In this document: piece by piece, positions 31,360-61,100 of the stretch
Numbering within the stretch: position 1 is the first letter of the stretch
Layout: every line of letters begins with the position of its first letter
NCBI GenBank assembly: GCA_031360095.1
Contig: JANMAY010000055.1
Location: 175 to 64,174 of the forward strand
Source of the DNA: Gemmatimonadaceae bacterium
GTDB lineage: Bacteria; Gemmatimonadota; Gemmatimonadetes; Gemmatimonadales; Gemmatimonadaceae
Direction: 5' to 3'
DNA length: 64,000 nt
Notes under the pieces: generated by a model
What the model was told of the DNA's origin: nothing
Database searches by the model: none
The model's input: the letters and a program-made list of their open reading frames with translations, nothing else
Made by a program: the position numbers and the translations under genes

Positions 31360-32400
31360 TCAGATCGCCCCCCTCCGTATGCCCAGCGCGACGATGGTCT
31401 CGATCAACTTTTCATACTTCATCCCCGCTTTCAGCGCCGATTGGGCAAACTCTTCCTTCTTGGCAATCTCCGGATTCGGATTCGCCTCGATGAAGTACGC
31501 CACCCCATCCGCCCGCAGGCGAAAGTCCAGCCGCGCGTACCCGTCCAGCGACAAGTTGCGATAGATCCGCCGCGCGACGGCCACGAGCTTCGCGCGAACG
31601 GTAGGATCCAGCTCTGCCACCCCCTCGGAAATACCGTGCTTCGACTGATAGTCCAGATTGTGCTTCACCCGCTGCGTCGCGATTGCCACCGCGCCCGGCG
31701 CGGTGTTCTCGAAGAACAATTCCCACGGCGGAAGAACGGTCAGCCGCTTGTTGCCAAACACTCCGACGTAAATCTCCCGCCCATCGATGAATTCCTCGAT
31801 CAGCGCGTCGCCAGTGACGCTCTCGTGGATGAACTTCACCCGTGTCTCGAGCTCCTCGTCGTTCCACACAACCGAGGCCTGCGCGATGCCAACCGACGAT
31901 TCCTCGGTCAGACTCTTCACGATCAGCGGAAAGGTGAGCGCTTTCGGCCGGCGAACGCGCCGTCCGGAATGCACGACATCGAACTTGGGGACGTGAATCC
32001 GGTGATACGTCAGGATCTTCTTCGCGAGTGACTTGTCGCGCGCGAGCACGAGACCGCGCGGATTGCATCCGGTGTAGGGCACGCGCAGCAGCTCGAGATA
32101 GCTCACGACGTGCTGGTCGAACTCCCGGAGGTCGAAGAACGCTTCCAGCATGTTGAACACGACGTGCGGCTTCCACTCCTCGACTTCGCGCCGAATGGGA
32201 GCCAGCTCCTCATGAATTTCGAGCGGACGCGCTTCGTGGCCGAGTGCGCGGAGGGTGGTGAGGACGTCGTTCTCGGTCTTGAAGGCATGGCGCTCCTGAT
32301 CGCTCAGACTCTTCAGATCATCGGGCGGCGTCATACCCGGCTCGATGAGCACGAGCACGCGGAGCGGCTTACGGCTGGTGCGGCGTCGAGTTGGGCTCAT
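31360..32400 (-). CDS. ATP-grasp enzyme of the D-alanine--D-alanine ligase-like family
   Basis: Long ORF 31360-33420 trimmed to the ATG at 32400 (MSPTRRRTSRKPLRVLVLIEPG...), which overlaps the stop of the upstream peptidase gene (ATGA). Ddl-like C-terminal motifs are EEFIDGREIYVGVFG and YARLDFRLRADGVAYFIEANPNPEI. Confidence 0.8.
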   Translation of the reverse strand: MSPTRRRTSRKPLRVLVLIEPGMTPPDDLKSLSDQERHAFKTENDVLTTLRALGHEARPLEIHEELAPIRREVEEWKPHVVFNMLEAFFDLREFDQHVVSYLELLRVPYTGCNPRGLVLARDKSLAKKILTYHRIHVPKFDVVHSGRRVRRPKALTFPLIVKSLTEESSVGIAQASVVWNDEELETRVKFIHESVTGDALIEEFIDGREIYVGVFGNKRLTVLPPWELFFENTAPGAVAIATQRVKHNLDYQSKHGISEGVAELDPTVRAKLVAVARRIYRNLSLDGYARLDFRLRADGVAYFIEANPNPEIAKKEEFAQSALKAGMKYEKLIETIVALGIRRGAI

Positions 32401-33404: not shown

Positions 33405-33523
33405 TCAGGCAAGCTCGCATGGGAGAGTGCCAGCGGCAACGTGATGGGGGTGAAGGACGACGGACCCGACCTGCACCCCACCCGACTCTGGCGCCCTATC
33501 CCGAGCAGTCCTACCTTCGCGAC

Positions 33524-36157
33524 GTGAGCTCCACCGAGATCCCCGACCACCTTCAGCAAGCGCTCGGCACCGCGTACACGATTGAGCGCGAGCTCGGTGG
33601 CGGCGGCATGAGCCGCGTCTTCCTGGCCGATGAAGCCGCCCTTGGCCGAAAGGTCGTCGTGAAGGTGCTGCGCCCCGAGCTCGCCGGCGATCTGTCCGCC
33701 GAGCGGTTCAAGCGCGAGGTGCGCCTTGCTGCGCGGTTGCAGCACCCGCACATCGTACCCCTTCTCGCTGCGGGCTCGCTCGACAGCGGGCTGCTCTACT
33801 ATACGATGCCGCTGGTCGAGGGCTCCACACTGCGCGGTCGACTCGAGCACGAAGGCGCACTGCCGATCGCCGATGTGGTACGCATCGTGTCCGACGTCGC
33901 CAGCGCGCTCGCGTACGCGCACCGCGCCGGTGTCGCCCATCGCGACATCAAGCCCGAGAATATTCTGTTGTCCGACGGTGGCGCCGTCGTCACCGACTTC
34001 GGCATCGCGAAGGCGATCAGCGCCGCGCGGACCACGTTGAGCGATAGCGACGCGCGAAGCAGCGCAACACTCACCGCCGCGGGCACGTCGCTCGGCACTC
34101 CCGCGTACATGGCGCCAGAGCAGGTGGCCGGCGACGCAACGGATCATCGTGCCGATCTCTATGCCATCGGCGTCATCGCGTACGAAATGCTCTGTGGCCA
34201 TGCGCCGTTCGAAGGACGAAACGCGCAGCAGCTCATGGCCGCGCACGCGACGCAGTCCCCCGAGCCGCTCGTGAAGCGACGCGCCAGCGTTCCGCCTGCA
34301 CTCGCGGCGCTCGTCATGCGGCTGCTCGAGAAGAATCCGGCCGATCGGCCGCAGTCCGCCGACGAGGTGCGCCAGGCCCTCGATGAGACTGCGGCGCCAC
34401 CGCGTATGCTCGTGCCGTGGACCGGAGAGCGGCACGTCGCCGTCAAGCGAAAGCCGTGGTGGATGGTGCCGTGGGCACTGCTCGCGGCAACGCTGGTGTT
34501 CGCGGCGATGTACCGGGCCAACGTCCCGCGCAGCGACCGCGCGATCGTCGTATCCTTTACCGCTCCTCCCGGCCAGGAACTCCGCCCCGCGAACAACGCC
34601 GCGTTCTCGCCGGACGGTACCCGGCTCGCGTTCGTCGCGACGGACGCGCAGGGACGATCATCCATCTGGGTGCGCTCGCTCGACAGCACCCAGGCAGTGC
34701 GCATCGACCATACCGACGGCGCGACGTGGCCCACGTGGTCCCCGGACGGTTTGACGCTCGGATTCTTCGCTGACGCGCAGCTCAAGATCATCGATTTGCG
34801 CGGCGGCGCGGCGCGCTCGTTGTGTCCGTCCGCGTTCGTCGTGGGTGCGACATTTACCAGCGACGATGTCATCGTGTACGCACCATCGGTGTTTGGTTCG
34901 CTCTACAAAGCCTCGGTCAAGCATGGCGACTGCAAGCCGCTGACCAAGCTCCGACTTGGCGACGGCGATCACCGCCGTCCGTCCGCCCTTCCCGATGGCC
35001 GAGTGCTCTTCAGCAGCGTCGTCACGAATACGGCGCTCGCAGCGAATCTTGCTTCCGGAGCGATCGTCGAGATCCGACGTCCGGGGCGCGATGCGCAGTT
35101 CGTCGCTCCCGACTGGATGCTCTACTATGACACCGACAACGGCCCGCTGTACGCGCAACGACTCGATCTCGCAACCCTGAAACCACGCGGGGAGCCGCAA
35201 ATTGTCGCCGAGCACGTTTCGACGGTGAACGGACGGTTCGCGCGATTCGCGGCCTCGCCATCGGCGCTTCTCTTCGAGCAAACGTCAGCGTCCGCGACAA
35301 AGCTCCATTGGGTCGATCGCCAGTCGCTGCTCCGCGATTCGGTCTTGGCGCCGGCGGATGCGCAATCGTTCGCCGTATCGCACGACGGACGCCGTATCGT
35401 CTTTGGTGGGCTCGGACTTTCGCTGTACGACCGCGATCGGAATGTGACGACGCGTCTCGCGTCGCAAACGGTGCGAAATCAGCTCTCGTCCGATCCGGCC
35501 TGGGATCCGGGTGACACGCTGATCGCGTACCGCACGTCGTTCGAGGGAACGCCTACACTCAATATCATCAACGTCGCCACCGGCAAAGTCGATTCACTCA
35601 TCGCGCTGCCTCGCCGCATTCCCTTCCGGCCGAGCTGGTCTCCCGACGGACGACACCTGGCGATCACGTTTCGCCCTGGAGATCTCGGAGCGTACGAAGA
35701 GTTGTGGATCTATTCGTTCGCCACGCACACAGCCACACGCGCGTTCGATCCGAAGGGCAATCTCGCCTCGCCGGCATGGTCTCCCGACGGGGGGTGGCTT
35801 GCCTACGAGTCGGACGAGAGCGGAGCGTCCGAGGTCTATGTTCGCCCCGTGACCGGTCAGAGCGCACCCATCCGAGTGTCGAACGCAGGCGGCCAGTTTC
35901 CACACTGGCGTGGCGACGGAAAATCAGTGTACTACCGTGCGCCAGACGGATCGATCATGGAAGTCGCGGTCACGCGAGGACGCTCGCTCGGACTGTCGAC
36001 ACCCGCCCTCGCGGTCGCACGCGCGCCGTTTTCATTTTCCGCCGCAAACAGGGCCTTCGCGGTCACACCGAACGGCGAGCAATACATCGCCTTCGCGCGC
36101 GGCGACGCGCCTGTATTCACACTCATGCTCAACTGGCAAGCGCGCCTGCACCGATAA
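33524..36157 (+). CDS. Ser/Thr protein kinase with single transmembrane segment and C-terminal TolB-like beta-propeller
   Basis: ORF 33419-36157. Kinase motifs are GGGGMSRVF, HRDIKPENILL, DFGIAK and YMAPE. A transmembrane helix (WWMVPWALLAATLVFAAMY) is followed by repeated FSPDG/WSPDG propeller blades. A GTG at 33524 is preferred over the ATG at 33419, because the latter leaves only 14 nt to the divergent peptidase gene. Confidence 0.85.
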   Translation: MSSTEIPDHLQQALGTAYTIERELGGGGMSRVFLADEAALGRKVVVKVLRPELAGDLSAERFKREVRLAARLQHPHIVPLLAAGSLDSGLLYYTMPLVEGSTLRGRLEHEGALPIADVVRIVSDVASALAYAHRAGVAHRDIKPENILLSDGGAVVTDFGIAKAISAARTTLSDSDARSSATLTAAGTSLGTPAYMAPEQVAGDATDHRADLYAIGVIAYEMLCGHAPFEGRNAQQLMAAHATQSPEPLVKRRASVPPALAALVMRLLEKNPADRPQSADEVRQALDETAAPPRMLVPWTGERHVAVKRKPWWMVPWALLAATLVFAAMYRANVPRSDRAIVVSFTAPPGQELRPANNAAFSPDGTRLAFVATDAQGRSSIWVRSLDSTQAVRIDHTDGATWPTWSPDGLTLGFFADAQLKIIDLRGGAARSLCPSAFVVGATFTSDDVIVYAPSVFGSLYKASVKHGDCKPLTKLRLGDGDHRRPSALPDGRVLFSSVVTNTALAANLASGAIVEIRRPGRDAQFVAPDWMLYYDTDNGPLYAQRLDLATLKPRGEPQIVAEHVSTVNGRFARFAASPSALLFEQTSASATKLHWVDRQSLLRDSVLAPADAQSFAVSHDGRRIVFGGLGLSLYDRDRNVTTRLASQTVRNQLSSDPAWDPGDTLIAYRTSFEGTPTLNIINVATGKVDSLIALPRRIPFRPSWSPDGRHLAITFRPGDLGAYEELWIYSFATHTATRAFDPKGNLASPAWSPDGGWLAYESDESGASEVYVRPVTGQSAPIRVSNAGGQFPHWRGDGKSVYYRAPDGSIMEVAVTRGRSLGLSTPALAVARAPFSFSAANRAFAVTPNGEQYIAFARGDAPVFTLMLNWQARLHR

Positions 36158-44315: not shown

Positions 44316-45515
44316 TTACTGCACCGCGTTGATCATGTCGAAGATCGGCAGATACATGGCCACGACCATGCCGCCCACCACCACGCCAAGAAACACGATC
44401 ATGATCGGCTCCATGAGGCTCAGCAAGCCAGACACAGCGGCGTCGACCTCTTCATCGTAGAAGTCGGCGATTTTCGAAAGCATCTCGTCCAGACCACCGG
44501 TCTGCTCGCCCACCGCGATCATCGAGATCACCATCGGCGGAAACACCGCGGACTTCTGCAGCGGTGCGGAGATCGTTTCACCACCGGCGATCGACGTCCG
44601 CGACTCCATGATTGCGTCGGAGATGACGCGGTTGCCCGCCGTCTTCGCCGTGATCTCGAGGCCATCGAGAATCGACACGCCCGAGCCGATCAGCGTACCG
44701 AGCGTCCGCGTGAAGCGCGACACCGCCGACTTTCTGAGCACGTCGCCAAGCACCGGCATTTTCAGCATCAGTTTGTCGATCGCGAGCTTCCCGCTGCTCG
44801 TGGCGTAATACTTTTTGACGAAGAAGACGAACGCGAAAATCGCGGCGAGCACGATGTACCAGAAACTCGTCAGGAACTTCGACATGCCGATGACGACGCG
44901 CGTCGGGAACGGCAGCGCCATGCCGACGCTCGCGAACATCTTCTCGAACACCGGAATCACGAAGATCAGCAGCACGATGATCGCGATGGCCGCCACGCTC
45001 GAGATGACGGCCGGATAGATCATCGCGCCCTTCACCTTGCGCACGAGCGCATCGTTCTTTTCCATGAACGTCGCGAGCCGCATGAGGATGGTGTCGAGAA
45101 TACCGCCCGCTTCACCGGCGGCGACCATGTTCACATACAGCTCGCTGAACGCCTTGGGATGTTTGCGCAGCGCGTCCGCCACGGTGTGACCGCTCTCGAC
45201 GTCGAACACGACGGCGTGCGTCACGTCCTTGAGCGCCTTGTTCTAGCTCTGCTTCGCGAGGATGTCGAGGGCCTCCACCAGCGGCAGGACGGCGTTGATC
45301 ATGGTCGAGAACTGCCGCGTGAAGATCACGATGTCGCGCATCGAGATACGGCCGCCGCTCTTTTTCTTCTTCGCGGTGGCGGTTTCGTCGATCTTCACGA
45401 CGTTCAGGCGCTGCTTTCTCAGCTGCGCGACGACGTCGTCCCGGCTCGGCGCGTCGATCGTTGCGGTGCGAAGGTCGCCGTTGAGGGCGCGGGCCGTATA
45501 GGTAAATGCTGGCAT
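44316..45515 (-). pseudogene. pilC: Type IV pilus platform protein PilC (GspF family) interrupted by one in-frame TAG
   Basis: ORFs 45243-45515 (90 aa, PilC N-terminus) and 44316-45224 (302 aa, remainder) are in the same frame. They are separated only by a TAG at 45243-45245. The continuous reading is ...LDILAKQS*NKALKDVTHAVVFDVESGHTVADALRKHPKAF..., totalling 400 codons including the terminal stop, the normal PilC length. Confidence 0.8.
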
Positions 45516-45537
45516 GGAGTGTCTCCTCGGTTTGATC

Positions 45538-45656
45538 GTAGGACGGTAGGACGGTAGGACGGTAGGACGGCCAGCCTCGGGACGTCCCTACAGTCGTTTC
45601 CGTTCTACTGTCCTACCGTCCTACTGTCCTACCGTCCTACCGTCCTACCGTCCTAC
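45538..45656. repeat. Inverted arrays of a tandem 8-bp unit: (GTAGGACG)x4 at 45538-45569 and (YGTCCTAC)x7 at 45601-45656
   Basis: Counted directly. The two arms are reverse complements of each other. The spacer contains the 10-bp palindrome GGGACGTCCC at 45579-45588. The array fills the pilT-pilC intergenic region, and the pilT stop codon (45653-45655) lies inside the last unit. Confidence 0.9.
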
Positions 45657-46801
45657 CTCTTTCCCGCCATCGCCCCACCCGACGCGCCGGGCTTCTTCGC
45701 GCCGTCGTCCTCGGGTGACTGGCCGATCATGCGCAGGAATTCGTTCGCGTCGTGTGTCGCACGAAGGCAATCGTCCAGCGCGACTTCCCGGCTCATGTAC
45801 AAGCCGTACAGCGCGTCGTTCATGGTCTGCATACCATACTTCTTTCCGGACTGCATGGTGCTGTAAATCTGGTGGATCTTGTCGTCGCGGATCAGCGCAC
45901 GCACCGCCGGCGTGACGACGAGAATCTCCGCGGCCATCGCGCGGCCGCGGCCCTTCGCCTTGGGCAGCAGCGTCTGCGTGATGATGCCCTCGAGCACGAA
46001 CGCGAGTTGCGCGCGCACCTGGCTCTGCTGGTGAGCCGGAAAGACATCGATGATGCGATTGATCGCCTCGGCCGCGCTGTTGGTGTGCAGCGTGGCGAAG
46101 GCAAGGTGGCCTGTTTCGGAGATCGTGAGTGCCGCCTGGATCGTATCCAGGTCGCGCATCTCACCGATCAGAATGACATCGGGATCCTGACGCAGCGCGT
46201 ACTTGAGCGATGCCTGGAAGCTCTTCGTGTCCGTTCCCACCTCGCGCTGGTTGACGATGCAGCCCTGGTGGCGGTGAATGAACTCGATGGGATCTTCGAC
46301 CGTGATGATGTGACCCTTCCGCTCCTTGTTGATCTTGTCGATCATCGCGGCGAGCGTCGTGCTCTTGCCCGACCCCGTAGGGCCCGTCACGAGCACCAGA
46401 CCGCGCGGCCGTTCCGCCATCTTGCGGATCACGTCGGGGAGCTTGAGCTCGTCGAAGGTCTTGATCGAAAACGGAATCTGCCGGATCACCATCGAGACAC
46501 AGCCGCGCTGCTTGAAGCAGTTGCCGCGAAAGCGCGCAAGGTTCTGGATGCCGAACGAGAAATCCAGCTCGTCCTCCATCTCGAACCGCTTCTTCTGATT
46601 TTCGGTGAGCACGCTGTAGGCGAGTTGCAGCGTATCCTTTGGCGACATCACGAACTCGAGATTCGAGTTCTGGATCTCGCCGTCGATGCGCATCTTGGGG
46701 CGCTCGCCGGCAGTCACGTGCAAGTCGGACGCGTCGCGCTCGATCATCTCCTCGAGCAGCACGCGGAGATTGACGCCTTGGGCTGATGCGGGTGCGGTCA
46801 T
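45653..46801 (-). CDS. pilT: Type IV pilus retraction ATPase PilT
   Basis: ORF 45653-46831, whose first codon is a TTG; the ATG at 46801 is preferred. Walker A is GPTGSGKSTT, and the PilT-type motifs TLHTNSAAEAINRIID and PAVRALIRDDKIHQI are present. Confidence 0.9.
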   Translation of the reverse strand: MTAPASAQGVNLRVLLEEMIERDASDLHVTAGERPKMRIDGEIQNSNLEFVMSPKDTLQLAYSVLTENQKKRFEMEDELDFSFGIQNLARFRGNCFKQRGCVSMVIRQIPFSIKTFDELKLPDVIRKMAERPRGLVLVTGPTGSGKSTTLAAMIDKINKERKGHIITVEDPIEFIHRHQGCIVNQREVGTDTKSFQASLKYALRQDPDVILIGEMRDLDTIQAALTISETGHLAFATLHTNSAAEAINRIIDVFPAHQQSQVRAQLAFVLEGIITQTLLPKAKGRGRAMAAEILVVTPAVRALIRDDKIHQIYSTMQSGKKYGMQTMNDALYGLYMSREVALDDCLRATHDANEFLRMIGQSPEDDGAKKPGASGGAMAGKR

Positions 46802-47078
46802 TGTGTGTGAAACGAGGATCGGGCCATCCAACGGACGGCAGCCATGTCGCGGTCTCGCGGCATGGGCGTCCTACAGCAGGACGATTGAGGCCGGTGGAGC
46901 GGAACAGACGCGTCACTCAGCAGACACCGGAGAAAGCTACTTTCAGCGGCGCCCCGCCACAGCCTCCGCAGCGCTGGAGACCCCGTTACCTGCCCGCTGG
47001 CGTGTGGCTAGCCTCTTGCCATTCTTCCCGGGGCGCTTTAGGCGCCTTGGATCCTCACTCCTTTCGACGCTCATCCGC

Positions 47079-47990
47079 ATGCCCGGCACGCACTTCACCC
47101 CCGCCAGCTCCACGGACGCCGTATCGGCCATAGCGTTCGGTGCCTTGCAGGGCCGGGTGGAGCAGGTTCTCAACGCCATTGACGACGGCGTCTTCTGCCT
47201 CGATGCTGAAGGTCGCGTGATTTTCATCAACGAGGCAGCCGTTCGACTGCTCGGATTCACGACTCGCGAGGTGATCGGACAGTCGATGCACGCGCTGTCA
47301 CATCACCACTATGCAGACGGCTCGGTATTTCCCGCGGAATCGTGCCCGATCCTCTCGTCAGTGACCGATGCAGTCCAACAGCGCGTTGGCGGCGACACGT
47401 TCTGGACGAAAGCCAAATCGCCGCTGCCCGTGGATTACACGAGTATCCCGATCAAGGACGGGCGGATCGTGGTAGGAGTGGTCGTCACGTTCCGGGACAT
47501 CAGCGAGCAGCAGCGGTCGGAAGAACAGGCGGCCCGGCTCAAGGGAGAGCGGGCTGCACGTGCCGAGGCGGAAGCGGCGCGAGAAGCCTTGCGAGTCAGC
47601 GAAGCGCGCTACCGGTTCCTCGCCGAGGCGATCCCGGTGCTGATCTGGACGGCTCGGCCAGACGGTGGGTTGGACTACGTGACACAACGCGTTGCCGACT
47701 ACTTCGGAACGTCCGTCGAGCAACTGCTCGCCGATGGGTGGAAAAACGTCGTTCACCCCGACGATCTCCCTGGCGTCGCGGAGCAGTGGGGCCATTCACT
47801 CAACACCGGGGAACCGTACAAAGTCGAGTTCCGACTCCGGGCGGCCGACGGTACGTTCCGCTGGCATCTCGCCCGTGCGCTCCCCCAGCGCGACGCCGCA
47901 GGCAAAGTCGTTCACTGGTTCGGAACCAATACCGAAATTGAGGATCAGAAACAGCAGTTGCTGCAGCAGACGTCACGGATGATCGTGTAG
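47079..47990 (+). CDS. Stand-alone tandem PAS/PAC domain protein (no output domain)
   Basis: ORF 46686-47990 trimmed to the ATG at 47079, giving 303 aa. Two PAS-like modules (DGVFCLDAEGRVIFINEAAVRLLGF... and IPVLIWTARPDGGLDYVTQRVADYFG...HWFGTNTEIEDQK) are joined by a charged coiled segment. The upstream part of the ORF overlaps pilT antisense. Confidence 0.7.
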   Translation: MPGTHFTPASSTDAVSAIAFGALQGRVEQVLNAIDDGVFCLDAEGRVIFINEAAVRLLGFTTREVIGQSMHALSHHHYADGSVFPAESCPILSSVTDAVQQRVGGDTFWTKAKSPLPVDYTSIPIKDGRIVVGVVVTFRDISEQQRSEEQAARLKGERAARAEAEAAREALRVSEARYRFLAEAIPVLIWTARPDGGLDYVTQRVADYFGTSVEQLLADGWKNVVHPDDLPGVAEQWGHSLNTGEPYKVEFRLRAADGTFRWHLARALPQRDAAGKVVHWFGTNTEIEDQKQQLLQQTSRMIV

Positions 47991-48035
47991 CACGCCTTCG
48001 AATTGTCGGGCTGATGGTCGCTCACCAACAGCTCC

Positions 48036-50081
48036 TCAGGCGCCGCGCATCAGCTCCTCGTATTGCTGCTTCATCCGCGAGAGCATTCGGCCGAATTCGG
48101 GATCGCCACGGATTCGGTCCAGCGAAGGATCCGACGCGAACAGCAGATAGCAGGGAAAGCCGTCGTCGGCGGCCTTTCGGAGCCACGGAACGGCATCGCG
48201 CGCGCTGCCGAGCATCGCGTACGCACTCCCGACATTGTACTCCGAGTGATGGAAGTGGCCGAACCCGCTACCCAGCCGGCTCGCCAGCGCGGCGTCACGA
48301 TCGACAGCGGTCCGGTCGCCGCGCCTCGCATCCAGCATGGCCCGCGTACTCCCGACGAGCCCGCCGCGGTCGATCGCCCGAGAACGCGCAAACGCGTCGA
48401 GCGTCTCCCGTGCGCCACTGGTGTCGCTCATTTGCAGCTGCGACCACGCCACGTGATACGCCCACAGCGAAGGGTTGAAGGTGGGCGGAATCTTTCGATA
48501 AACCTCGAGTGCGCCGGCGAAGTCGAGCCGGTACGCCTTGCCCACCCCAACACGGAACTGCGCGAGCCGATTTGCAGGATTGAGCTCGAGTGCCAGCCCA
48601 ATCTGATGCGCCGCCGAGTCCAGCATTCCCACATGGAGATAGACCAGGCCGAGCTGGTGGTGCGCCTCATCGTAGCGAGGGTCGAGCGCGATGGCGCGCC
48701 GAAATCCCTTGATGATCTGCGCGTGGGGAAAGTGACTTCGCGGCGACCACAGCAAAAACGCGCGGGCGTAGTGCGCCTCGGCAAGATTAGGGTCGAGTTG
48801 GAGCGCATGCTCGGCGGCCACATCACCCTTCTCGGCGTCCACTGAGTCATTTGGCGCGAAATAAAACACGTGGGTCGCGTAGGCGTTCGCCAGCGCCGCG
48901 AGCGCAGCCGGAAAGTTGGGATCCCGCTGCACGGCAGCTTCCAGCACCGCGATCGCCTGCGAGATGTCCTCACCATTCTCCTTCCGCAAATGCACCTTCC
49001 CGCGGAGGTACAGCTCGTTCGCAACCACGTCGGAACTCGGGCGCGCCTGCGGGCTTGCCGGCATCGCGCGCACCTCGCTCTCCAAGGTCGACGTGGATCC
49101 CGGACCAGCAATCGCAATGCTGGATACAGGAGGGCGCAACATGCGAAGAGCCATCGTGACACCCACCACACCAATCGCTACGACAGATGCGATCACCAGC
49201 CGCCGCGTAGTCATTCCTGACATTCGGCCAGAGCCACCGCTTAGAATCCGCTGCTCGCCGCGCAGCGCCGCGACGAACTCCGCGGCAGTGGCGTAGCGCT
49301 CCGCTGGCACCTTGGCCAGCGCGAGCATGACGGCCTGTTCGACTGCACGCGGAATCTCCGGACGGATAGTGCGAAGGGAGGGCGGCACGTCCACCGCGTG
49401 TCGCGCGAGGATGGCCTGCGCGGTGGCGCCGGTAAAGGGCGGCGTCCCCGCCAGCATCTCGTAGGTAAGGCAGCCGAGCGCGTAGATATCACCGCGCGCG
49501 TCGGGCTCGCGCGCGCCATCGATCTGCTCCGGGCTCATGTAATGGGGCGTGCCCACGAGCATGCCAGTCGACGTGATCCGCTCGCCATCCGCGACAAGCC
49601 TGCGCGCGATGCCAAAGTCGGTGAGCACCGCGTGTCCATCGATCAGCATCACGTTCTCGGGCTTCACGTCGCGGTGGATGACGCCACGGCGATGCGCGTG
49701 CTCGAGCGCCTCGCCGATTTCGCCTGCGAAGCGCACGGCGTCGGCAGTTGAGAGCTGGCGCTCGCGCTGCAGCAACCCGCGCAGCGATTCCCCGTCCACC
49801 ACCGGCATCGCAAAGTAGAGGTGCTCTCCGGTTCGTCCGGAATGCAACAGCGGGAGCACTCCGGGATGGGCGAGTGAGCCCACGGCGCGCACCTCGCGGA
49901 GGAATCGTTCCGCGACGGAGGGATCGGTCTGGTCTGCGGCGATCACCTTCAGGGCCACTGCGCGCTGCTCGACCCTGTCGTCAGCGAGATACACGGTGGC
50001 CATCCCGCCGCGCCCGAGCACGCGGCGGAGCGTGTAGCGGCCGTCGAACTCGCTGGGAAAGTCGGCGGGAAGGGGGGGCAT
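48036..50081 (-). CDS. Ser/Thr protein kinase with transmembrane segment and C-terminal TPR repeats
   Basis: ORF 48036-50114 trimmed to the ATG at 50081, 10 nt after the pilB stop. Kinase motifs are GRGGMATVY, HRDVKPENVML, DFGIAR and YMSPE. A transmembrane helix (LVIASVVAIGVVGVTMAL) is followed by TPR-like repeats. Confidence 0.85.
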   Translation of the reverse strand: MPPLPADFPSEFDGRYTLRRVLGRGGMATVYLADDRVEQRAVALKVIAADQTDPSVAERFLREVRAVGSLAHPGVLPLLHSGRTGEHLYFAMPVVDGESLRGLLQRERQLSTADAVRFAGEIGEALEHAHRRGVIHRDVKPENVMLIDGHAVLTDFGIARRLVADGERITSTGMLVGTPHYMSPEQIDGAREPDARGDIYALGCLTYEMLAGTPPFTGATAQAILARHAVDVPPSLRTIRPEIPRAVEQAVMLALAKVPAERYATAAEFVAALRGEQRILSGGSGRMSGMTTRRLVIASVVAIGVVGVTMALRMLRPPVSSIAIAGPGSTSTLESEVRAMPASPQARPSSDVVANELYLRGKVHLRKENGEDISQAIAVLEAAVQRDPNFPAALAALANAYATHVFYFAPNDSVDAEKGDVAAEHALQLDPNLAEAHYARAFLLWSPRSHFPHAQIIKGFRRAIALDPRYDEAHHQLGLVYLHVGMLDSAAHQIGLALELNPANRLAQFRVGVGKAYRLDFAGALEVYRKIPPTFNPSLWAYHVAWSQLQMSDTSGARETLDAFARSRAIDRGGLVGSTRAMLDARRGDRTAVDRDAALASRLGSGFGHFHHSEYNVGSAYAMLGSARDAVPWLRKAADDGFPCYLLFASDPSLDRIRGDPEFGRMLSRMKQQYEELMRGA

Positions 50082-50091
50082 CGCCGGCGGG

Positions 50092-51921
<1,830 letters not shown>

Positions 51922-52035
51922 AAACGGACGGGGAGCGGCGAAGGGGAGCCACGAACAGCGGTCGCGAGGCGCCGCGAGTCCGGACAAAGGACGGACGCTG
52001 AAGCTCGCCCCCTACGTCGTGCCTGTCAAGAATTT

Positions 52036-52677
52036 CTAATGTCCGGTGCGGGCAGGCGTCGCGCCGGAGAAAGTAACCAGATCACTGAGCTTTTGAAGGG
52101 TAGCGGCTCCAAGACCCTTGACTCGACCTAGTCCGTCAAGGGATTTGAACGCGCCAAAGGAGTCGCGATTGGCGACGATTCGCCTTGCCGTCGCCGCGCC
52201 AACGCGGGGGAGCTTGTCGATTTCGGCCGCACTGGCAACGTCGAGGTCGATGCGCGACCGCTCACCTTTATATATGGTAGCGCGCGGGAGCGGCGCTGGA
52301 GTCCGATAGTCGACATCGATTCGAGGTCCGGGCGGCGGAAAGCCGGATCTGGACGAGACGGACCCGTACGGGGCGTGAGAAAATGGGTCGTCTGGCCTGG
52401 CAAAGTTCTGTGGGACGGAGGCGACACCAGCGACTATTTTGGCGACAGTATCGCGACTGCTAGGCGTCATTTTATGCTGTCTAGCTCCTTTGCTGCGCTT
52501 TGTTTTCGTGGCCTCCGCGGCGGCTTGATCTGCTGCCGTTGCTTGACCTGCGAGGGCCTGCTGCTCCGATTCAGTCGGACCCGCTGCGGAGCCGGCGCGA
52601 ACGACCCGGACGGCGCCGCCGAGCAGGATGATGATGGCGACGAAGGCGAGGGCCTTTTGTTCTGAGGGTGTTGGCAT
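52036..52677 (-). CDS. comEA: ComEA-like helix-hairpin-helix DNA-binding protein
   Basis: ORF 52036-52728 trimmed to the ATG at 52677 (MPTPSEQKALAFVAIIILLGGAV membrane anchor). The C-terminal tandem HhH region is IDLDVASAAEIDKLPRVGAATARRIVANRDSFGAFKSLDGLGRVKGLGAATLQKL. Confidence 0.75.
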   Translation of the reverse strand: MPTPSEQKALAFVAIIILLGGAVRVVRAGSAAGPTESEQQALAGQATAADQAAAEATKTKRSKGARQHKMTPSSRDTVAKIVAGVASVPQNFARPDDPFSHAPYGSVSSRSGFPPPGPRIDVDYRTPAPLPRATIYKGERSRIDLDVASAAEIDKLPRVGAATARRIVANRDSFGAFKSLDGLGRVKGLGAATLQKLSDLVTFSGATPARTGH

Positions 52678-52834
52678 GGGGCGGAAGATGCCGAGTGTGG
52701 CCACCTGTCCATCACCGAATCCGTGCATGTACGATCAAAACACCCGACGTGTCGCGGAGAACTTTCAAAGCGCTTGCTCAGAAGTCCTCCGCGACAACCA
52801 AACTTCGCAGTGGATTTGCCTTGTTGCGGCGGTG

Positions 52835-53317
52835 TTACGCCGCCTTTCTGGTCGAGATGGGGAGCGGAACCAACTCCGCCGCACGGACCCGACCAAAGAC
52901 TCGCCGCTCAACGATCGCATCGACTGAGAATGCGCCCGCGCCCGTCACGCCAAGAGCTGTGGCCATGGCGAGGAGTGCGAGGGGGAACTCGAATCCGCCG
53001 GGGTTGAAGAATCCCGCCTTGAGATGCACAGCCAGGATGGCTACGACCATGGTGCTGGAGAGTCCGAACGCGGCGAAGCGCGTCAGGAGGCCGAGGATGA
53101 TCGCGAGCCCGCCGAAGAGCTCGACGAGGGCGACGAAGGGTCCGAGCAGGCCTGGTATGGGCATGCCCATCTGCGCGAATGCGCCAGAGACGCCGGCGAA
53201 GCCATAGACGAACAACTTTTGCCCCCCGTGCATGACGAAGGTGGCGCCAAGGACGACGCGGAGGATTGTGAGGCCGATGGTGACTTGGCGCGCGGAGGGA
53301 GAACGGAAGATCGACAT
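52835..53317 (-). CDS. DoxX family membrane protein
   Basis: 160 aa with four predicted transmembrane helices. The characteristic DoxX stretch is LRVVLGATFVMHGGQKLF...VELFGGLAIILGLLTRFAAF. Confidence 0.8.
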   Translation of the reverse strand: MSIFRSPSARQVTIGLTILRVVLGATFVMHGGQKLFVYGFAGVSGAFAQMGMPIPGLLGPFVALVELFGGLAIILGLLTRFAAFGLSSTMVVAILAVHLKAGFFNPGGFEFPLALLAMATALGVTGAGAFSVDAIVERRVFGRVRAAELVPLPISTRKAA

Positions 53318-53361
53318 GAGAGGGTGCCTCGAGTGAGTGGTGATTCGGTGTCGCGATACTT

Positions 53362-53375
53362 GGTGTTATAACATC
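53362..53375. promoter_or_regulatory. Putative MarR operator GGTGTTATAACATC (contains the perfect palindrome TGTTATAACA)
   Basis: Read directly. It lies in the AT-rich 75-bp gap between the marR stop and the doxX start. It matches the site upstream of marR (53872-53885) in 13 of 14 positions. Confidence 0.5.
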
Positions 53376-53392
53376 TATTAGTTCAAAAAAAC

Positions 53393-53860
53393 CTAATCTT
53401 TGTCTCGCGCCTTGGTGAGCAAATCGATCAATGAGCGCAACTGAGCGTCGGTAAGGTGCCCGAGCTGCGCTTCGTGCAACTCGCTGACAGGCTGGTCGAG
53501 CTCGTCCAGCAGTCGAAGCGCCCTGGCGGTGATCCGGGTGGAAACGAGCCGCCGATCGTCGCTGTCTCTCGAGCGCAACACCAGCCCCGCCTCCTCCATC
53601 CGGTCGAGCAGGCGTGTCATGTCCGGCATGCGCGTAAGCATGCGGTCGCGCAGTGCGTTTCGACATAACCCGTCGGGTTCCGAGCCCCGAAGAATCCGGA
53701 GCACGTTGTACTGCGTGCCACTGATGCCATACGGCTTGAACAAATCTTCCATGGCATCCACGAGCGCCGTCGACGTCCGCAGCACATTCAGAAAGCACTC
53801 CTGGGAGAGGCTCGTGAACGGCTTGCTCTGGCGAAGATCACTGCGAAGCGTGGCGGGCAT
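53393..53860 (-). CDS. MarR family transcriptional regulator
   Basis: 155 aa with a winged-helix region (GISGTQYNVLRILRGSEPDGLCRNALRDRMLTRMPDMTRLLDRMEEAGLVLRSRDSDDRRLV) typical of the MarR/SlyA family. Confidence 0.85.
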   Translation of the reverse strand: MPATLRSDLRQSKPFTSLSQECFLNVLRTSTALVDAMEDLFKPYGISGTQYNVLRILRGSEPDGLCRNALRDRMLTRMPDMTRLLDRMEEAGLVLRSRDSDDRRLVSTRITARALRLLDELDQPVSELHEAQLGHLTDAQLRSLIDLLTKARDKD

Positions 53861-53871
53861 GAGTGAATGTA

Positions 53872-53885
53872 GGTGTTATGACATC
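53872..53885. promoter_or_regulatory. Putative MarR operator GGTGTTATGACATC
   Basis: Read directly. It lies 12-25 nt upstream of the marR start codon and matches the site at 53362-53375 in 13 of 14 positions. Confidence 0.5.
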
Positions 53886-54073
53886 GAGTGTCAAGACCTC
53901 GGATCGAAACGGCCGAGGTGGCATGGATTGGCGAACAACCACAATGGCGGACAGCCCAACCGCGGAACCGATATGGGAACCGCTCGAACATCCGGCGGAT
54001 CGCTCCTCGTTCAGTCGCGTAAAGATTCGTCCCAGCGACAGCTCATACGAGTAAAGGAACTCTCTTCGCTCGA

Positions 54074-55027
54074 TCATTGATCCATGATCAACGACAGCGC
54101 AACGTCTCCGACGATCTGTAGACTCTTCGCCGAGACATGCTCCATCGTATCCCCGAGCGTGTGATGGTAGTTCGGAGAGGAGTAGCCTGCCGGCCCGAGC
54201 GGACCGTAGTCGATGTCGAGCACGTCGATCACGCGATATCCCTTCTGGAGGAACGGCACGTGGTCGTCGGTGATCGCCGACGCATACGCGCGCGGGATGA
54301 AGTACTTGGCGTATCCCAGGTCCGCGGCCTTTTGCCACACTCTGCTCACGACCTCCGGCGCGCCGTTCATCGAGTTGGGCTCCTGAAGGATGTTGAGGTC
54401 TGCGTCGCCGATCATATCCCAGAGCACGCCGTAGATGGGCCGGTAGTCGGGTGACGGCGGATGCGCAACGAAGTACTGCGAGCCGAGGAGCACGTCGGTG
54501 TACGGTGGATCGAAGCTGGTGCCGTAGTCCTCACCATCCACGAGCAACAGGTCCACGCCGATGTTGGGCGGTGTCTTCTTCATCACGTCGGCAAGCGCAA
54601 TGAACAACCCGACGCCGGAGGCGCCGTCGTTGGCGCCGAGAATGGGCGTCGCGCGGTTGCCGAGCACTGGATCGCTGTCGGCCACAGGACGCGTATCCCA
54701 GTGCGTGATGTAGAGCACGCGCTGCGTGGCGTGCGGACGAAAGCGCGCGAAGATGTTTCGCAGCGCGATCGAGTCGCCCTTGAGCGTTTTGTGCTTCCAG
54801 CGCTGCTCGATGACGGTGTCCGCGCGCTGCTTCATCATCGTCACGATCCAATCCCCGGCCTTCTCGGCTCCGGCAGTGCCAGGCACGCGCGGACCGAAGG
54901 CGACCTGCTGTCGCACGTACGAAAGCGCCGAATCACCGTTGAAGGCGGTCTTCGGCCGGCTCGGCAGCTTATCGCAGGCGGTGAGGCTGATCGCAGCAGC
55001 GAGAATCATCAGCACGCGAATCGTCAT
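54074..55027 (-). CDS. M28-family lipoprotein, glutaminyl cyclase-like
   Basis: 317 aa. The lipobox is MILAAAISLTAC. The motifs ITHWDTRPVADSDP, GANDGASGVGLFIALADVM and LLLVDGEDYG are those I recall from bacterial type II glutaminyl-peptide cyclotransferases and related M28 peptidases. Confidence 0.65.
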   Translation of the reverse strand: MTIRVLMILAAAISLTACDKLPSRPKTAFNGDSALSYVRQQVAFGPRVPGTAGAEKAGDWIVTMMKQRADTVIEQRWKHKTLKGDSIALRNIFARFRPHATQRVLYITHWDTRPVADSDPVLGNRATPILGANDGASGVGLFIALADVMKKTPPNIGVDLLLVDGEDYGTSFDPPYTDVLLGSQYFVAHPPSPDYRPIYGVLWDMIGDADLNILQEPNSMNGAPEVVSRVWQKAADLGYAKYFIPRAYASAITDDHVPFLQKGYRVIDVLDIDYGPLGPAGYSSPNYHHTLGDTMEHVSAKSLQIVGDVALSLIMDQ

Positions 55028-55033
55028 TGATGG

Positions 55034-55149
55034 GTAGGACTGTAGGACGGTAGGCCGGTAGGACGGTAGGACGGTAGGACGGGAGAGAGCGGAGCGGGGG
55101 AGACCAGCGGGAGCGGATCGTGTTGCAGTTTGCGGTCCTACGGTCCTAC
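55034..55149. repeat. Second inverted array of the 8-bp unit: (GTAGGMYK)x6 at 55034-55081 and (GGTCCTAC)x2 at 55134-55149
   Basis: Counted directly. The left-arm units are GTAGGACT, GTAGGACG, GTAGGCCG, GTAGGACG, GTAGGACG, GTAGGACG. After a 52-bp spacer come two reverse-complement units. The element fills the gap between the sprA stop (55151) and the M28 gene start (55027). Confidence 0.9.
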
Positions 55150-55150
55150 G

Positions 55151-58100
55151 TCATTTCGGTTCCCCAAAGAACTGCACCTGCAGCACCGTCGACAGCACGA
55201 GCTGTGTCGCGCGACGGTTGAAGTTGTTGTCGTACGTGATCACACGCGAGCCCTGCAGCGTGAAGATTACAGTTTCGCTCAAGTCGGTGTCGGCATTGAT
55301 GCTCACCGCGCTGCGGCCGTTGTCGGCGAGGCGGCTCGTTCCCAGGCGCGCAAGATCGTTGATGTACGTGCTCGTGCGCGTCTGCTGCCACCCCACACGC
55401 GTGCGAATGTCGTTCTCGATGGTGAAGCCGAGGCTTTTCGGCAGCTTGAATGGACGGCCGATATCGAGGCTCACTTCCTCGGACCTTCCGTCGGCGACGC
55501 TGCCGGGAAGTGAATCGACGCGCGTCGTCAGTGTATAGCCGGCAGACGATGTGAGCCCGCGCCCGAAGCCCCACAGCACCGACGCATTGAGCGGGATGGT
55601 GCGCGTTCGTGAGCCGCGGAGCTCCGGTCGCTCACGGTTTACATCGCCGGGCAAAAGGGTGGACGCAAGGGAGCGCGCGTAGCCGGCGTTGGCGCCGACG
55701 GAGGCGAGAAATGGCAGCACCATTGCGGGCGGCTTCCAGTTCCAGCGAACGCTGACGTCGGGGAACACGGTCTGTGCGCCGTCGGCGACAGACTGCGCGT
55801 CGTCGGAGCGACGCGTCCAACTGCGCGTCGTGGTGCGGCGGTAGCGATTTACGAAGGCGACGTTTCCGGGAAAGAGAAACGACTGGCTCGCAGCGAGCGC
55901 CTGGGTGAGGCCGGTGGTCGCAGCGAGTTGGCCATTCGCCTGTCGAAACGCATCGATGCCTCCCAGTCCGAACTGCAGGCCGAGGGGCGAACCGTTGCTG
56001 GCGGCGTCGAACGCGGAGAGCAAGCTGCGATTGACGGTGATGTCGAGTGGCGCAAACACTCTGGCAAGCCGCCGAGCGAGCGAGGAATCCGCGCCGTAGA
56101 TCGTGAGGGCGCGGCCGAGATCGATCGTCACGCCGCCGCCGAGGTTCTGCGACACCGTGATACGGCGCGGCAATGTCTCCGTCACGGTGTTGCCGAACGT
56201 GAGACCGGCGAGCGAGCCGGCGTTCGGATCGCGCAGCATGCCGTACTGCGTGCCGAAGTCCACGCGCGGCTTGAACCACTGCGAGCGCTGTGGCGCGAAT
56301 GCCATCGACGTGAGCAGAGAGCGTTCGCGCTCCATCCCGACATTGGCGCCGAACAGCTGCGCGCGACTATCGGTAGCCGCTCGGGCAGCGGCGGTCGTAT
56401 CCCCATAGTCGCGGAGGTCGCGCAATGAGATGAAGTCCCAGCGCGCGGTGAGTGCGTCGGTAGGGCGGAACTCGAGCGTGCTCGCGTTGCGCCACAGGTT
56501 TTGTTCGGCGCGCGAGACGCGAGCGGAATCGTCGAACGCGGCGGCGGGCTTGAGAAACGAAAACCGCTGATCGGTACCGCGCACCACGCCGCTGGAGAAG
56601 CGCAGCACCGTGGGATTCCAGCGAAACAGCGTGGGTTGATTGAGGGTGTCCGCGAAGCGAAAGAATCCAGGCATGAACCTCGACGGCGAGCCAAGCAGCC
56701 CGGGCACGCGCGTGCGCCGCGCTTCCGCCGCGACGCTGTAGTCGAGGCTCATCGCAAAGTTGTCACTCACGCCTCGCTGATATTCGTTGCGGCTGTCGCC
56801 CGTGGTGTAGGTCGAGGTCAACCCGAGATTGTCCACCAGCGCGCTGACGAGCGGATTGCCCACAGGCGCCGTACGACGCACCGTGAGCGCGTACGTCGTG
56901 ACCCCCTGGGACGGAGCGCGCAGATTCTGCACTCCCGCGCCGGGAACGTCGGTGCCACTCAGGAACAGTGGTGTACTCGCCGCAGACACGTGCGTGATGG
57001 TGAGCGGCACGGCGAACCCGAAGCTCACCGGCAACAGCTTTTCCAGATGCACGGTGCCAACGAGATCGAACACGCGATCGTTCACGAAGCTCGGCTGGTC
57101 GGTGAGCTGGCGAAAGTACGGATCCTTCTTCGTGAACCCCACGCGAATGTCAGCGATGCCCGCCGCGGATAGCGCAACGCTCATCTGGCCGGCATATCCG
57201 GGATGGTTGACGACCTGGCCGAGCCGGATGTCGTCGACCCAGAGTTCGAGTGAATCGGCAGGGCCGATCGTGCTCGGTGCACCGCCCGTCGCCGGAAGGC
57301 GGACGAAGCCAACGGCCATCTCCTGCACCGCCGCGAGATTGGGCGGTGCCGCTCCCGGCTCGACGGTGTACACCATGTAGCCGCCGTCGCACGCGGCGTA
57401 GCGCTGCTGGCCGGAGATCGCGGGAATCGGCGATGCGTTCACCAGGGCCGCATCGGCACCTGTGCACGAGAGCGTGTCGCCCTTGTTCTGCAGATACGCG
57501 TTCTGGATGCGCTGTCGCAACTGGAAGAAGCGGTCGAAGTCCACCCGGACTTCGGGATTCCATGCCTCCTGCCCCGGACCACTGTTGACCGGCGTGCGAT
57601 AGAGATAAAAGTTGTTCGCATCGCGTCCGATCTTCACGTACATCTGGAGCTCTCCGCGATCACCCCATCCGTTGCGGCGTCCGCGCGCCCAGAGCCTGAG
57701 CTGCTGGTACCCCATGAAGCTCTGCTGGCCATTGGGAAAGCGATAATACGCTTCGGCTCGGCCATACACCGGAAGGTTGCCCGCCTGTAGACGCAGCGAG
57801 CGCTCGTTGATCTGTGTCAGCCCCGTCGTGAACTGCGAGGTGCGCGTGTCGGCTTCGTCGATCACGCCGGGGGGCGGCTGGTAGTCGTCGCCGCTGACGG
57901 TGGACTTGTCCGCCGTTCCGATCAGCGACGTTTGCGTATATCCACCGGCTGGCCGCTCGCCAGCGATGCCCGACAGCGTTTGCTCGTTGCGCTTGATCCA
58001 CGGCGCTCCGGTGAGCTTGAGGCGCGCGAGGGGAATCTGAATGAACTCATCGTCGCGCGCACCTGCCCCGCTCACCATCGTCACGCGCAGCGCACGAACG

Positions 58101-61100
58101 CGGCGCAGGAGCACGTCGTTGAGCGTGTCGTCGGCGAGGCGGAAGGGCACCTTCACCTGCACCCACTGAAGCGCGCGAGGGGTGCCCGTGGCATCCAGGC
58201 GCTGGACGAACCGCTTTCCGAATCGCACCCAGCGTTTTTGATCGCTGAGGTCGACGACGAAGCGTGTGATGCGCTCGCGATCGCGCACGCTGCTCGGCAA
58301 GTTGAGGACGTTGTCGAGATCGATGTCTTCCTCGTCGAGCTTGTTGTTGTGCACCGTGCAATTAGCGCGCGTGTCGCCAAGTCGCGCGACGACGTTCAGC
58401 GTGCCGGAGCAGAGGGGAACGTTGAAGGCGCGTGTTGTCCCCGCGCCGGTGTCGACGAGCAGCGTATCCGCGATGTCGCCCGGCAGTCCGGTGTCGTTCG
58501 CATCGGCGTTGAATGCGCGGGAGATGGGATCGCGCTCCGAATCCAGACGGTCGAATCCCTGGAGCTTTTTGCCACGAAAGAGCGAGTCCGGCGTGGAACC
58601 GGGCCGGACGACGAGCGTTTCCGGCGCGAATGCGACGGTGTTCTCGGAGATCTCACCGAGATCGAAGACGAGTGTGGGATTGGACGCACGGCGCGCCGCG
58701 CTCGTGTCGACGAGCGTCCAAAACTCGAGGTCTTCGACGCGCGAGAGATCGGCACCGGACGGACTGAGCACGGTGCGCACGGACCGAAATCGGCGACCGG
58801 ATGGCGCGTTGGCGACCGACCAGGCATACGTGCGCGTCGCAGGATCGTACCGGCCGCCGATGCTCAAAGGATACAACGTGAGCCAGAGCACCGTCTCATT
58901 CGACGAGAAGAGGCCAGCGGTGAGCGCATTCTGATCGATGCTGTCACCGCGCACGAGGACGTTCACCCCATCGGCCGAGAGGCCGTTGTTCTGAAATGCG
59001 ATGGTGGAGGCTCGGCGAAGATCGAACGGATTGACGCCGTATTTCCGCGGCAGGAGGTGTCCGTCGGCGGGTTGACTTGCGAGCGCCCAGTTCTGGTCGG
59101 AGAGACCGACGGTAATCCCTGCCTCGCCCTCGAAGCTTTCGATGAACGCCTGGGCCTGTGTGTTCAGCTGCGGGCGGCTGGTGGCGAATTCGCCTTGCAC
59201 GCTGAGTCGTGACGGCGTCGTGCTCTTCACGAACGGCAAACGATTCATCAGCCGGGTGAGCGGCGCGACCTCCCATCCGATCTGCCCATTCACGCCGGCA
59301 AGAAGCGACGACACCGGCTCGAAGCCGAGCTGCGGGCGAGTGAAGTTGGTTTTCTGCGACTGCTGGACGGCGATGAAATTCAGCTCGCCATTCGGGAGTG
59401 GGAGTGTGCTCGTCATGCCGAACAGCGTCGTGGGTGTGACGGCGAACAGCGGATTCTCTTCGAATCGAACGCTCACCGCGCGCTGGCGTGTGAACAGCGT
59501 GTCTGGCCGCGCGAAGGTGAGCCGGCCGAGCTCGTAGTCGACGCGATAGTCGACGTCGCGCACGAGCGGCCTGCCATCGAGCACGACGCGCTCCGATCCC
59601 CTGCGCACCTGCACGCTGCCGAGCATGACGGCGCCGCCGGTGGATTCGGTGCTGGCATCGGTCTCGTAGCGCACCTTCAGGCGATAGACGTTCGCGGGAT
59701 GCTGCGGCGAATAGAGGTATTCGCCCGGGGTGACGTAGATCGCGTCGTTACTCGGGTTGCCCGGCACGACAAGCCCCGAGTCGCGGCGGGCGAACGGCTG
59801 AAGGGAGGGAAAGATCACGAAGTGGTCGCGAATGATCCGTCCGCCGCTCGCCGCGCTCGCGCTCGATGCGGCGCCAAGGGAGGCCGCACTCGCGAGTCCG
59901 GCAGTGCCGCCGGCTGCTGCGCTGTAGTTCGGATCGGAGGGTCGTGGCCACAGGCGGTTCTCGATGTCGAAGCTCGCGGGGTTGGTGGCTTGCGCGAGGC
60001 CGAGCATCTGGAGGAACGTTGCGTACGATCCTGCGGCGGGCTTTTCCTGCTCCCCTGCTCCGCTCACGATGCGAAGCGTGGTCGTGGCGCGCACCAGCTC
60101 CTCGCCACCCACGCGATACACCGAGCGGATCTCGCGCCGAAACGCCGGCGTGCCAGGAAGCACGTTGGGATCGGACACGAGGTTCGCCTGCTGATCGGCG
60201 CTGCTGAACTGCAGATCGGGAGTTCCGCCGGTGGCGGGGTAGACGGTGTCGACGCCATTGATGCGAACGGTGTACGCGACGACGAGGCGCTCGTTGGTCT
60301 GATTGAGGGGGCGCACCAGCGCGAACCAGAGCTGCGACGGATCGAGATAGTAGTCGACGCCTTCGCGAAGTACGTCGTACGTCTGCCGGCCGCCACCCGG
60401 ATCTCCGATCAGGCGAAAGCGCGGCCCGTTGGGATTTTGCGGTTGGGTGCCGAACTGCACGCGGTACAGGAGGACGCGTCGTGGGCGCAGGGTGTCGGGG
60501 AGTGACGCGGCGAGGGCCGTGAGTTGGCGGCGGTCGAGAATGTCGATGTTCGGATACGTTCCGGTGAACAGCGTGGGATCGACGGTGAAGAAGAAGCGCC
60601 TCGGCTCGATCTGATTGTCGAGGATTTCGTGCTCGGCGCTCTGGCGGGTGCGGTCGGCGATGAGATACGTGCGCTCCTGTGCGATGTTGCCTTTCTGCTG
60701 GGCGGCGATTGCCTGGAGACGAAAGCGCCCCAGGCGTCCGTTTGCCTGGAGCCCGTAGTTTCCGCTCGGCACGCCGCTGGAGAGGAATCGCGTGGAGGGC
60801 AGCGCGAAGGCGACGTTGCCCACCTCCACGCGCTGAAGGCGGTCGGTGGCTTTACCCTGGTAGTAGATGTTCAGTGCATTCGACGCGTCGAACTCGCGCT
60901 GGGTGTCGTAGTCGACGTTCACGTGCACACGATCCGCCACGGTGCCGGTGCTTTGCATCGTGAACTGGAACTTGAAGTCCGGGGTCAGGCCGGGCCGACA
61001 TTCCACGCCGGGGATGAACTGGCCGGTGTTGCATTTCTCGTCGAGCCGGCGTTCACCTTTGGCCTCGATGCGGGTGCGAACGTCGACATTGAGGTCCGTA

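Follow-up and report, generated by a model that had tools for sequence, protein, structure and literature searches.

Our study addresses a question raised by a single codon: what does an in-frame stop signify in the middle of an otherwise ordinary pilus gene? The window, by which we mean the whole stretch of 64,000 nucleotides analysed here, is high-GC DNA (~64% G+C) from an uncultured soil Gemmatimonadaceae bacterium, and its gene for the platform protein of the type IV pilus, pilC, is interrupted by a TAG at codon 91. The original prediction offered four readings of this interruption, namely a sequencing error, a recent inactivating mutation, a population on/off switch and a gene expressed in two parts; our analysis retains the first two and discards the other pair. 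In a homologue search the nearest named homologues of this pilC are all MAGs of Gemmatimonadaceae, and because all relatives are MAGs or metagenome contigs, the window's own contig of 76,728 nt very likely has the same origin. The pilus genes lie in the order, from upstream to downstream, pilB, a TPR Ser/Thr kinase gene, an antisense gene for a PAS protein, pilT, pilC and a convergent DUF3761 gene. Two pilus ATPases are thus in the neighbourhood of pilC, with pilT immediately upstream and pilB 4.6 kb upstream, and pilC is the final gene of the pilT-pilC unit.

50092-51921, minus strand: pilB, extension ATPase, intact, with the same protein sequence as in sister contig L087.
45653-46801, minus strand: pilT, retraction ATPase, intact, with the same protein sequence as in sister contig L084.
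45516-45652, no strand: pilT-pilC spacer, a palindromic array of 8-nt units, unit GTAGGACG.
44316-45515, minus strand: pilC, type IV pilus platform protein of the T2SSF family, 399 codons, interrupted at codon 91.

Translation of the minus strand (45515 to 44316) gives 399 sense codons, one internal TAG at codon 91 and a terminal TAA. It agrees with the original prediction in every particular: a single in-frame TAG at 45243-45245, two fragments in one frame that together give a 399-residue PilC on read-through, the residues ILAKQS on one side of the stop and NKALKD on the other, and a GTG six codons past the TAG. This GTG, at 45224-45222, is the next in-frame start and has only an AAGGA motif, which abuts it, with no well-spaced ribosome-binding motif; the true start of pilC has GAGGAG 7 nt upstream of its ATG. 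A GC3-based scan for further in-frame stops, a crude test, flagged the pilC site as the sole clear case.

45243-45245, minus strand: in-frame TAG, codon 91 (CTA on the plus strand), with its private base at 45245.
45246-45515, minus strand: N-terminal 90-codon pilC fragment, comprising T2SSF_N and the first 26 residues of T2SSF domain 1.
44316-45224, minus strand: C-terminal 302-codon pilC open reading frame, opening at the GTG of codon 98.

When the frame is read through with X in place of the stop, the product matches PF00482 (T2SSF) twice (E=1.1e-62) and has the ~400-residue PilC/GspF architecture; its residues 4-399 align to Myxococcus xanthus PilC (3JC8) with 392 bits, and its relatives are annotated with PF00482 and PF28597. 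The cut falls 26 residues inside the first T2SSF domain (residues 65-188 by Pfam) and also inside the range of the crystallised Thermus PilC domain (58-163). The domains, the full-length similarity and the ATPase neighbourhood of the PilC/GspF family are all present, and the uninterrupted frame is not. Judged by its sequence, architecture and context, the window pilC belongs to this family, though in interrupted form.

Three intact 399-aa PilC proteins, at 99%, 98% and 98% identity (P0002-P0004), came up in the homologue search, and we compared the window with their contigs and with one further contig whose PilT is identical. The closest, L084 (ENA ERZ27314311), differs from the window by 6 substitutions in 3,083 nt, and L001 (ERZ28573539) is 98.8% identical to it over 3.5 kb; both carry an intact pilC. 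Over the 1,200 nt of the gene, the window differs from each of them at the same three positions and nowhere else.

45289, minus strand: private transversion, codon 76 GGC to GTC, Gly76Val; Gly in 83 of 83 relatives.
45275, minus strand: private transversion, codon 81 CAG to GAG, Gln81Glu; Gln in 83 of 83 relatives.
45245, minus strand: private transversion, codon 91 GAG to TAG, Glu91stop.

The three changes span 45 nt, are all nonsynonymous and are all transversions at G:C pairs; on the coding strand two are G-to-T and one is C-to-G, and the changed guanines lie on both strands. This clustering, private to the assembly, adds to the TAG that could be seen from the sequence alone. As L084 and L001 have the same bases here, and so do the more distant L002 and L003, it is the window that carries the derived state. 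Searches for the variant elsewhere came back empty: exact look-up of the 90-aa and 302-aa fragments gave no record, a homologue search with the 90-aa stub gave only P0148, a singleton on the window's own contig, and the JGI metagenomes held no match to near-identical DNA with any base allowed at the three variant sites, and no TAA or TAG at codon 91 in its residue context. We have high confidence that this is a private lesion of recent origin and not a programmed feature.

The altered positions are strongly conserved in a set of 83 related pilC loci, made up of 80 species representatives and three close contigs. Gly76 and Gln81, which lie in the AGLPLxQAL motif common to Myxococcus and Thermus PilC, are invariant in this set, and no locus has Val76 or Glu81. 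At position 91 there is Glu in 65 loci (GAG in 59, GAA in 6), Asp in 16 (GAC or GAT) and Gln in 2 (CAG), and a stop in none, in keeping with the Glu (GAG) that had been predicted for relatives. The TAG is absent from all related strains compared, including the 99.8% identical one, which has Glu. A split pilC was likewise found neither among the 83 loci nor among the best 120 homologues.

The background of divergence around pilC is of a different kind. The other 22 differences between the window and L001 include 19 synonymous changes and 17 transitions. Against L085 there are 30 substitutions and no indels in 14.7 kb, and the comparisons with L085, L086 and L087 (roughly 32 kb) show mostly synonymous differences, with no frameshift, coding indel or other broken gene; small indels relative to the sister contigs occur in intergenic DNA only. 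Clusters of differences elsewhere, in ddl (31684-31792) and pilB (50710-50821), are almost wholly synonymous, as would be expected for recombination between functional alleles. When 36 substitutions were placed at random over 17.8 kb, three fell within 45 nt in ~11% of simulations, a frequency that dropped to roughly 1e-4 when all three also had to be nonsynonymous transversions. This low chance, together with the odd pattern, indicates that the pilC cluster is the result of one local event and not of ordinary divergence or the slow decay of a pseudogene.

The lesion also appears to be young. A test for a decaying pilus locus turned up nothing else altered in pilC and no amino-acid difference from the sister strain in PilT or PilB; the 11 nucleotides at which pilB differs from its L087 counterpart are all synonymous. 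The unchanged PilT and PilB proteins place the lesion as very recent, with no time for further decay. Being derived, private to the assembly and very young, it fits the part of the original prediction that spoke of an error or a recent inactivation.

The sister contigs also differ from the window in ways that do not concern the stop. In ddl, three window-specific substitutions (31684, 31702 and 31792) fall within 108 nt and are all synonymous, with L085 and L086 carrying the other base; this cluster is of the ordinary recombination type and contrasts with the nonsynonymous one in pilC. The 137-nt pilT-pilC spacer consists almost wholly of 8-nt units arranged as a palindrome, four copies of GTAGGACG facing about seven copies of the complement (window 45516-45657), and the TAG stop of pilT lies inside the last octamer unit. 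The spacer array has two units (16 nt) more in the window than in L001 and L084, and its difference from L084 means that array length is variable between strains that are 99.8% identical; it is context only and not the cause of the pilC stop. At 46825 the window has CC and L084 has C, 24 nt upstream of the pilT start codon, a one-base difference that falls in the divergent promoter region of pilT and the PAS gene. Identity between L087 and the window is 99.0% over 47529-55048 but falls to 93.5% over sprA (55142-60775); divergence rises abruptly at a second octamer-array element (55034-55149) and the first ~75 codons of an M28 peptidase gene, which suggests a recombination boundary at a REP-like repeat.

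The best explanation of these data, to which we give an even chance, is that the TAG is a true stop, produced by a private and very recent lesion, and that it belongs to a real allele rather than to a consensus error. We infer that the three changes would then be present in the DNA of the sampled population, and not only in the consensus, and that they would have arisen together, in a single multi-base mutational event that altered three G:C pairs within 45 bp of pilC. Translation from the canonical start would yield a 90-residue stub ending inside the first cytoplasmic domain, made up of T2SSF_N followed by roughly one and a half helices from the first cytoplasmic bundle. A product restarted at GTG98, which would be devoid of the N-terminal region and part of domain 1, is expected to be inactive. 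No membrane-embedded platform would be made, and the pilus machine would assemble no pili; in type IVa pili, PilB cannot drive pilin polymerisation when the platform is missing. The cell would probably be deprived of pili, twitching motility, pilus-dependent DNA uptake and phage adsorption, and nothing downstream would be affected, because pilC is the last gene of its unit.

Selection, by pilus-dependent phages for instance, may have promoted loss of the pilus. In P. aeruginosa, truncating pilC mutations are selected by a pilus-targeting phage, and it is well documented that bacteria can become resistant to pilus-dependent phage by losing pilC (PMC13170266).

One point in favour of a real allele is that all three changes are of the type produced by guanine oxidation or error-prone repair. 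What counts against it is that three substitutions from one event are a rare kind of mutation, that the variant occurs in no other public record and that no donor sequence or quasi-palindrome in the window accounts for the cluster. A gene is usually knocked out by a single nonsense change.

Several sources of a ready-made cluster were considered and rejected. Gene conversion or quasi-palindrome correction from within the window fails: k-mers that include two or more of the variant bases are found nowhere else in it, and the cluster is not spanned by any inverted repeat. An origin by recombination with a divergent strain was set aside because the real tracts of this kind here are almost wholly synonymous and no relative has Val76 or Glu81, and mutagenesis by a diversity-generating retroelement because there is no ancestral adenine among the changed bases. 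That the cluster is the mark left by guanine damage at several neighbouring sites, or by a patch of error-prone repair, and was swept to high frequency by selection for loss of the phage receptor, we consider highly improbable in this specific form; in a weaker variant of that reading, restart at GTG98 would give an N-terminally shortened platform with altered function.

The most serious rival to a genuine null allele is that the organism's pilC is intact and that poor or damaged reads gave rise to the three changes, for instance through oxidised guanines or a low-coverage bridge carried into the contig. We judge this to be a substantial possibility, somewhat short of an even chance. Changes never seen at invariant or near-invariant positions, confined to 45 nt of a gene that is otherwise the same as in its sisters, resemble a miscalled stretch, and two missense changes so close beside the stop raise the odds of an artefact. 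Two of the three changes are G-to-T, which is the classic type of oxidative or base-calling artefact; the variant is absent from independent assemblies, in the homologue search with the 90-aa stub as in the JGI metagenomes; a triple substitution is rare in nature; public MAG records often contain pilC genes that look broken (for instance the frameshifted P0151, P0158 and P0191 on long contigs); and the window's contig very likely belongs to a MAG itself. Against this stands the quality of the assembly elsewhere: the roughly 32 kb compared with the sisters is clean, and the finding of no indels in 14.7 kb against L085, with the small ones intergenic, argues against a generally error-prone consensus. 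Furthermore, three random errors rarely enter the consensus of a long contig, short-read assemblers dropping low-depth paths, and a single damaged strand cannot give all three changes because the changed guanines are on both strands.

Similar irregularities are found in other records. At least ten other public Gemmatimonadota records (P0151, P0158, P0162, P0163, P0177, P0179, P0191, P0207, P0240 and P0249) contain N-terminal fragments of pilC in which the frame is lost after residues roughly 35-117 and translation stops at out-of-frame codons that the fragments share, and most of these lie on contigs of 10-174 kb; such frameshifted pilC genes in MAG records are probably, for the most part, assembly indels. 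In L085 alone, two second-position transversions lie 12 nt apart (33468 and 33480) in a Ser/Thr kinase-Tricorn-like gene (33419-36157), so that codons 17 and 21 both read Leu in place of the window's Arg and His, respectively; L086 is like the window here. Sister assemblies thus also show small clusters of radical changes.

The remaining readings take the stop as part of a functioning gene. A two-part or shortened PilC would require ribosomes to restart at GTG98 and make the 302-aa product, alone or together with the 90-aa stub. The six codons between stop and GTG are a distance at which termination-reinitiation is possible in principle, and the rest of pilC is undamaged, but the interruption falls within the first helical T2SSF domain and not between domains, no relative is split, GTG98 is without a well-spaced ribosome-binding motif of the kind found at the true start, and the stub is itself altered at two invariant residues. 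The two-part gene of the original prediction is therefore very improbable. Programmed decoding of the TAG, whether by readthrough, a suppressor tRNA or pyrrolysine, would give a full-length PilC, and the frame is open on either side of the TAG and yields a protein of normal length; yet TAG is the terminator of 13 of the 34 genes in the window, pilT and pilB included, a stop at this codon recurs in neither the 83 related loci, the 99.8% identical strain nor the JGI metagenomes, and we give this idea almost no credence. The window contains no tRNA and no Rfam family, no suppressor tRNA or pyl genes, and the predicted RNA fold of the 121 nt around and downstream of the TAG is no better than that of shuffled sequence (z = +0.57). 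A reversible on/off switch of piliation in the population, for which one might invoke the phase-variable pilus genes of some bacteria and the octamer array next to pilC that differs by two units between strains, is just as implausible and was likewise dropped from the original prediction, since pilC has no simple-sequence repeat, homopolymer, inverted repeat or invertible segment near 45243-45289, the only repeats nearby are the pilT-pilC spacer arrays about 270 nt or more from the stop, and a transversion stop accompanied by two missense transversions has no high-frequency way back.

Returning to the choice between a recent null allele and a consensus error, the practical consequence is the same for annotation: the window pilC merits a flag as a pseudogene or possible assembly error, and the genome should be scored neither pilus-competent nor pilus-deficient unless reads support the call. 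As a point of method, it was the near-identical metagenome contigs that revealed the stop to be one of three clustered private changes, and the comparison with them rules out the recoding and split-gene ideas for pilC.

A comparison with known systems places the locus in a familiar setting. Like the type IVa platform proteins and their relatives, among them M. xanthus PilC (3JC8), the N-domain of T. thermophilus PilC (2WHN) and V. cholerae EpsF (2VMA), the protein encoded here combines a T2SSF_N region with two T2SSF domains, and it shares with known PilC proteins the AGLPLxQAL motif region and a neighbourhood of pilB followed by pilT-pilC. It departs from them in being stopped at codon 91 and in having Val76 and Glu81 at invariant positions. 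The closest parallel to its present state is found in the phage-selected pilC mutants of P. aeruginosa, which also have an early truncation of the platform protein with the other pilus genes intact; those mutants are laboratory-selected frameshift deletions with a measured phenotype, whereas the window pilC carries a three-substitution cluster in an uncultured soil bacterium known from assembly sequence (PMC13170266 for the mutants). Nonsense and frameshift knockouts of pilus genes are already well known, and the stop in the window is no special coding trick: it is either an ordinary knockout of recent date or an error in the consensus, and nothing about the lesion is even slightly unusual apart from its cluster of three bases.
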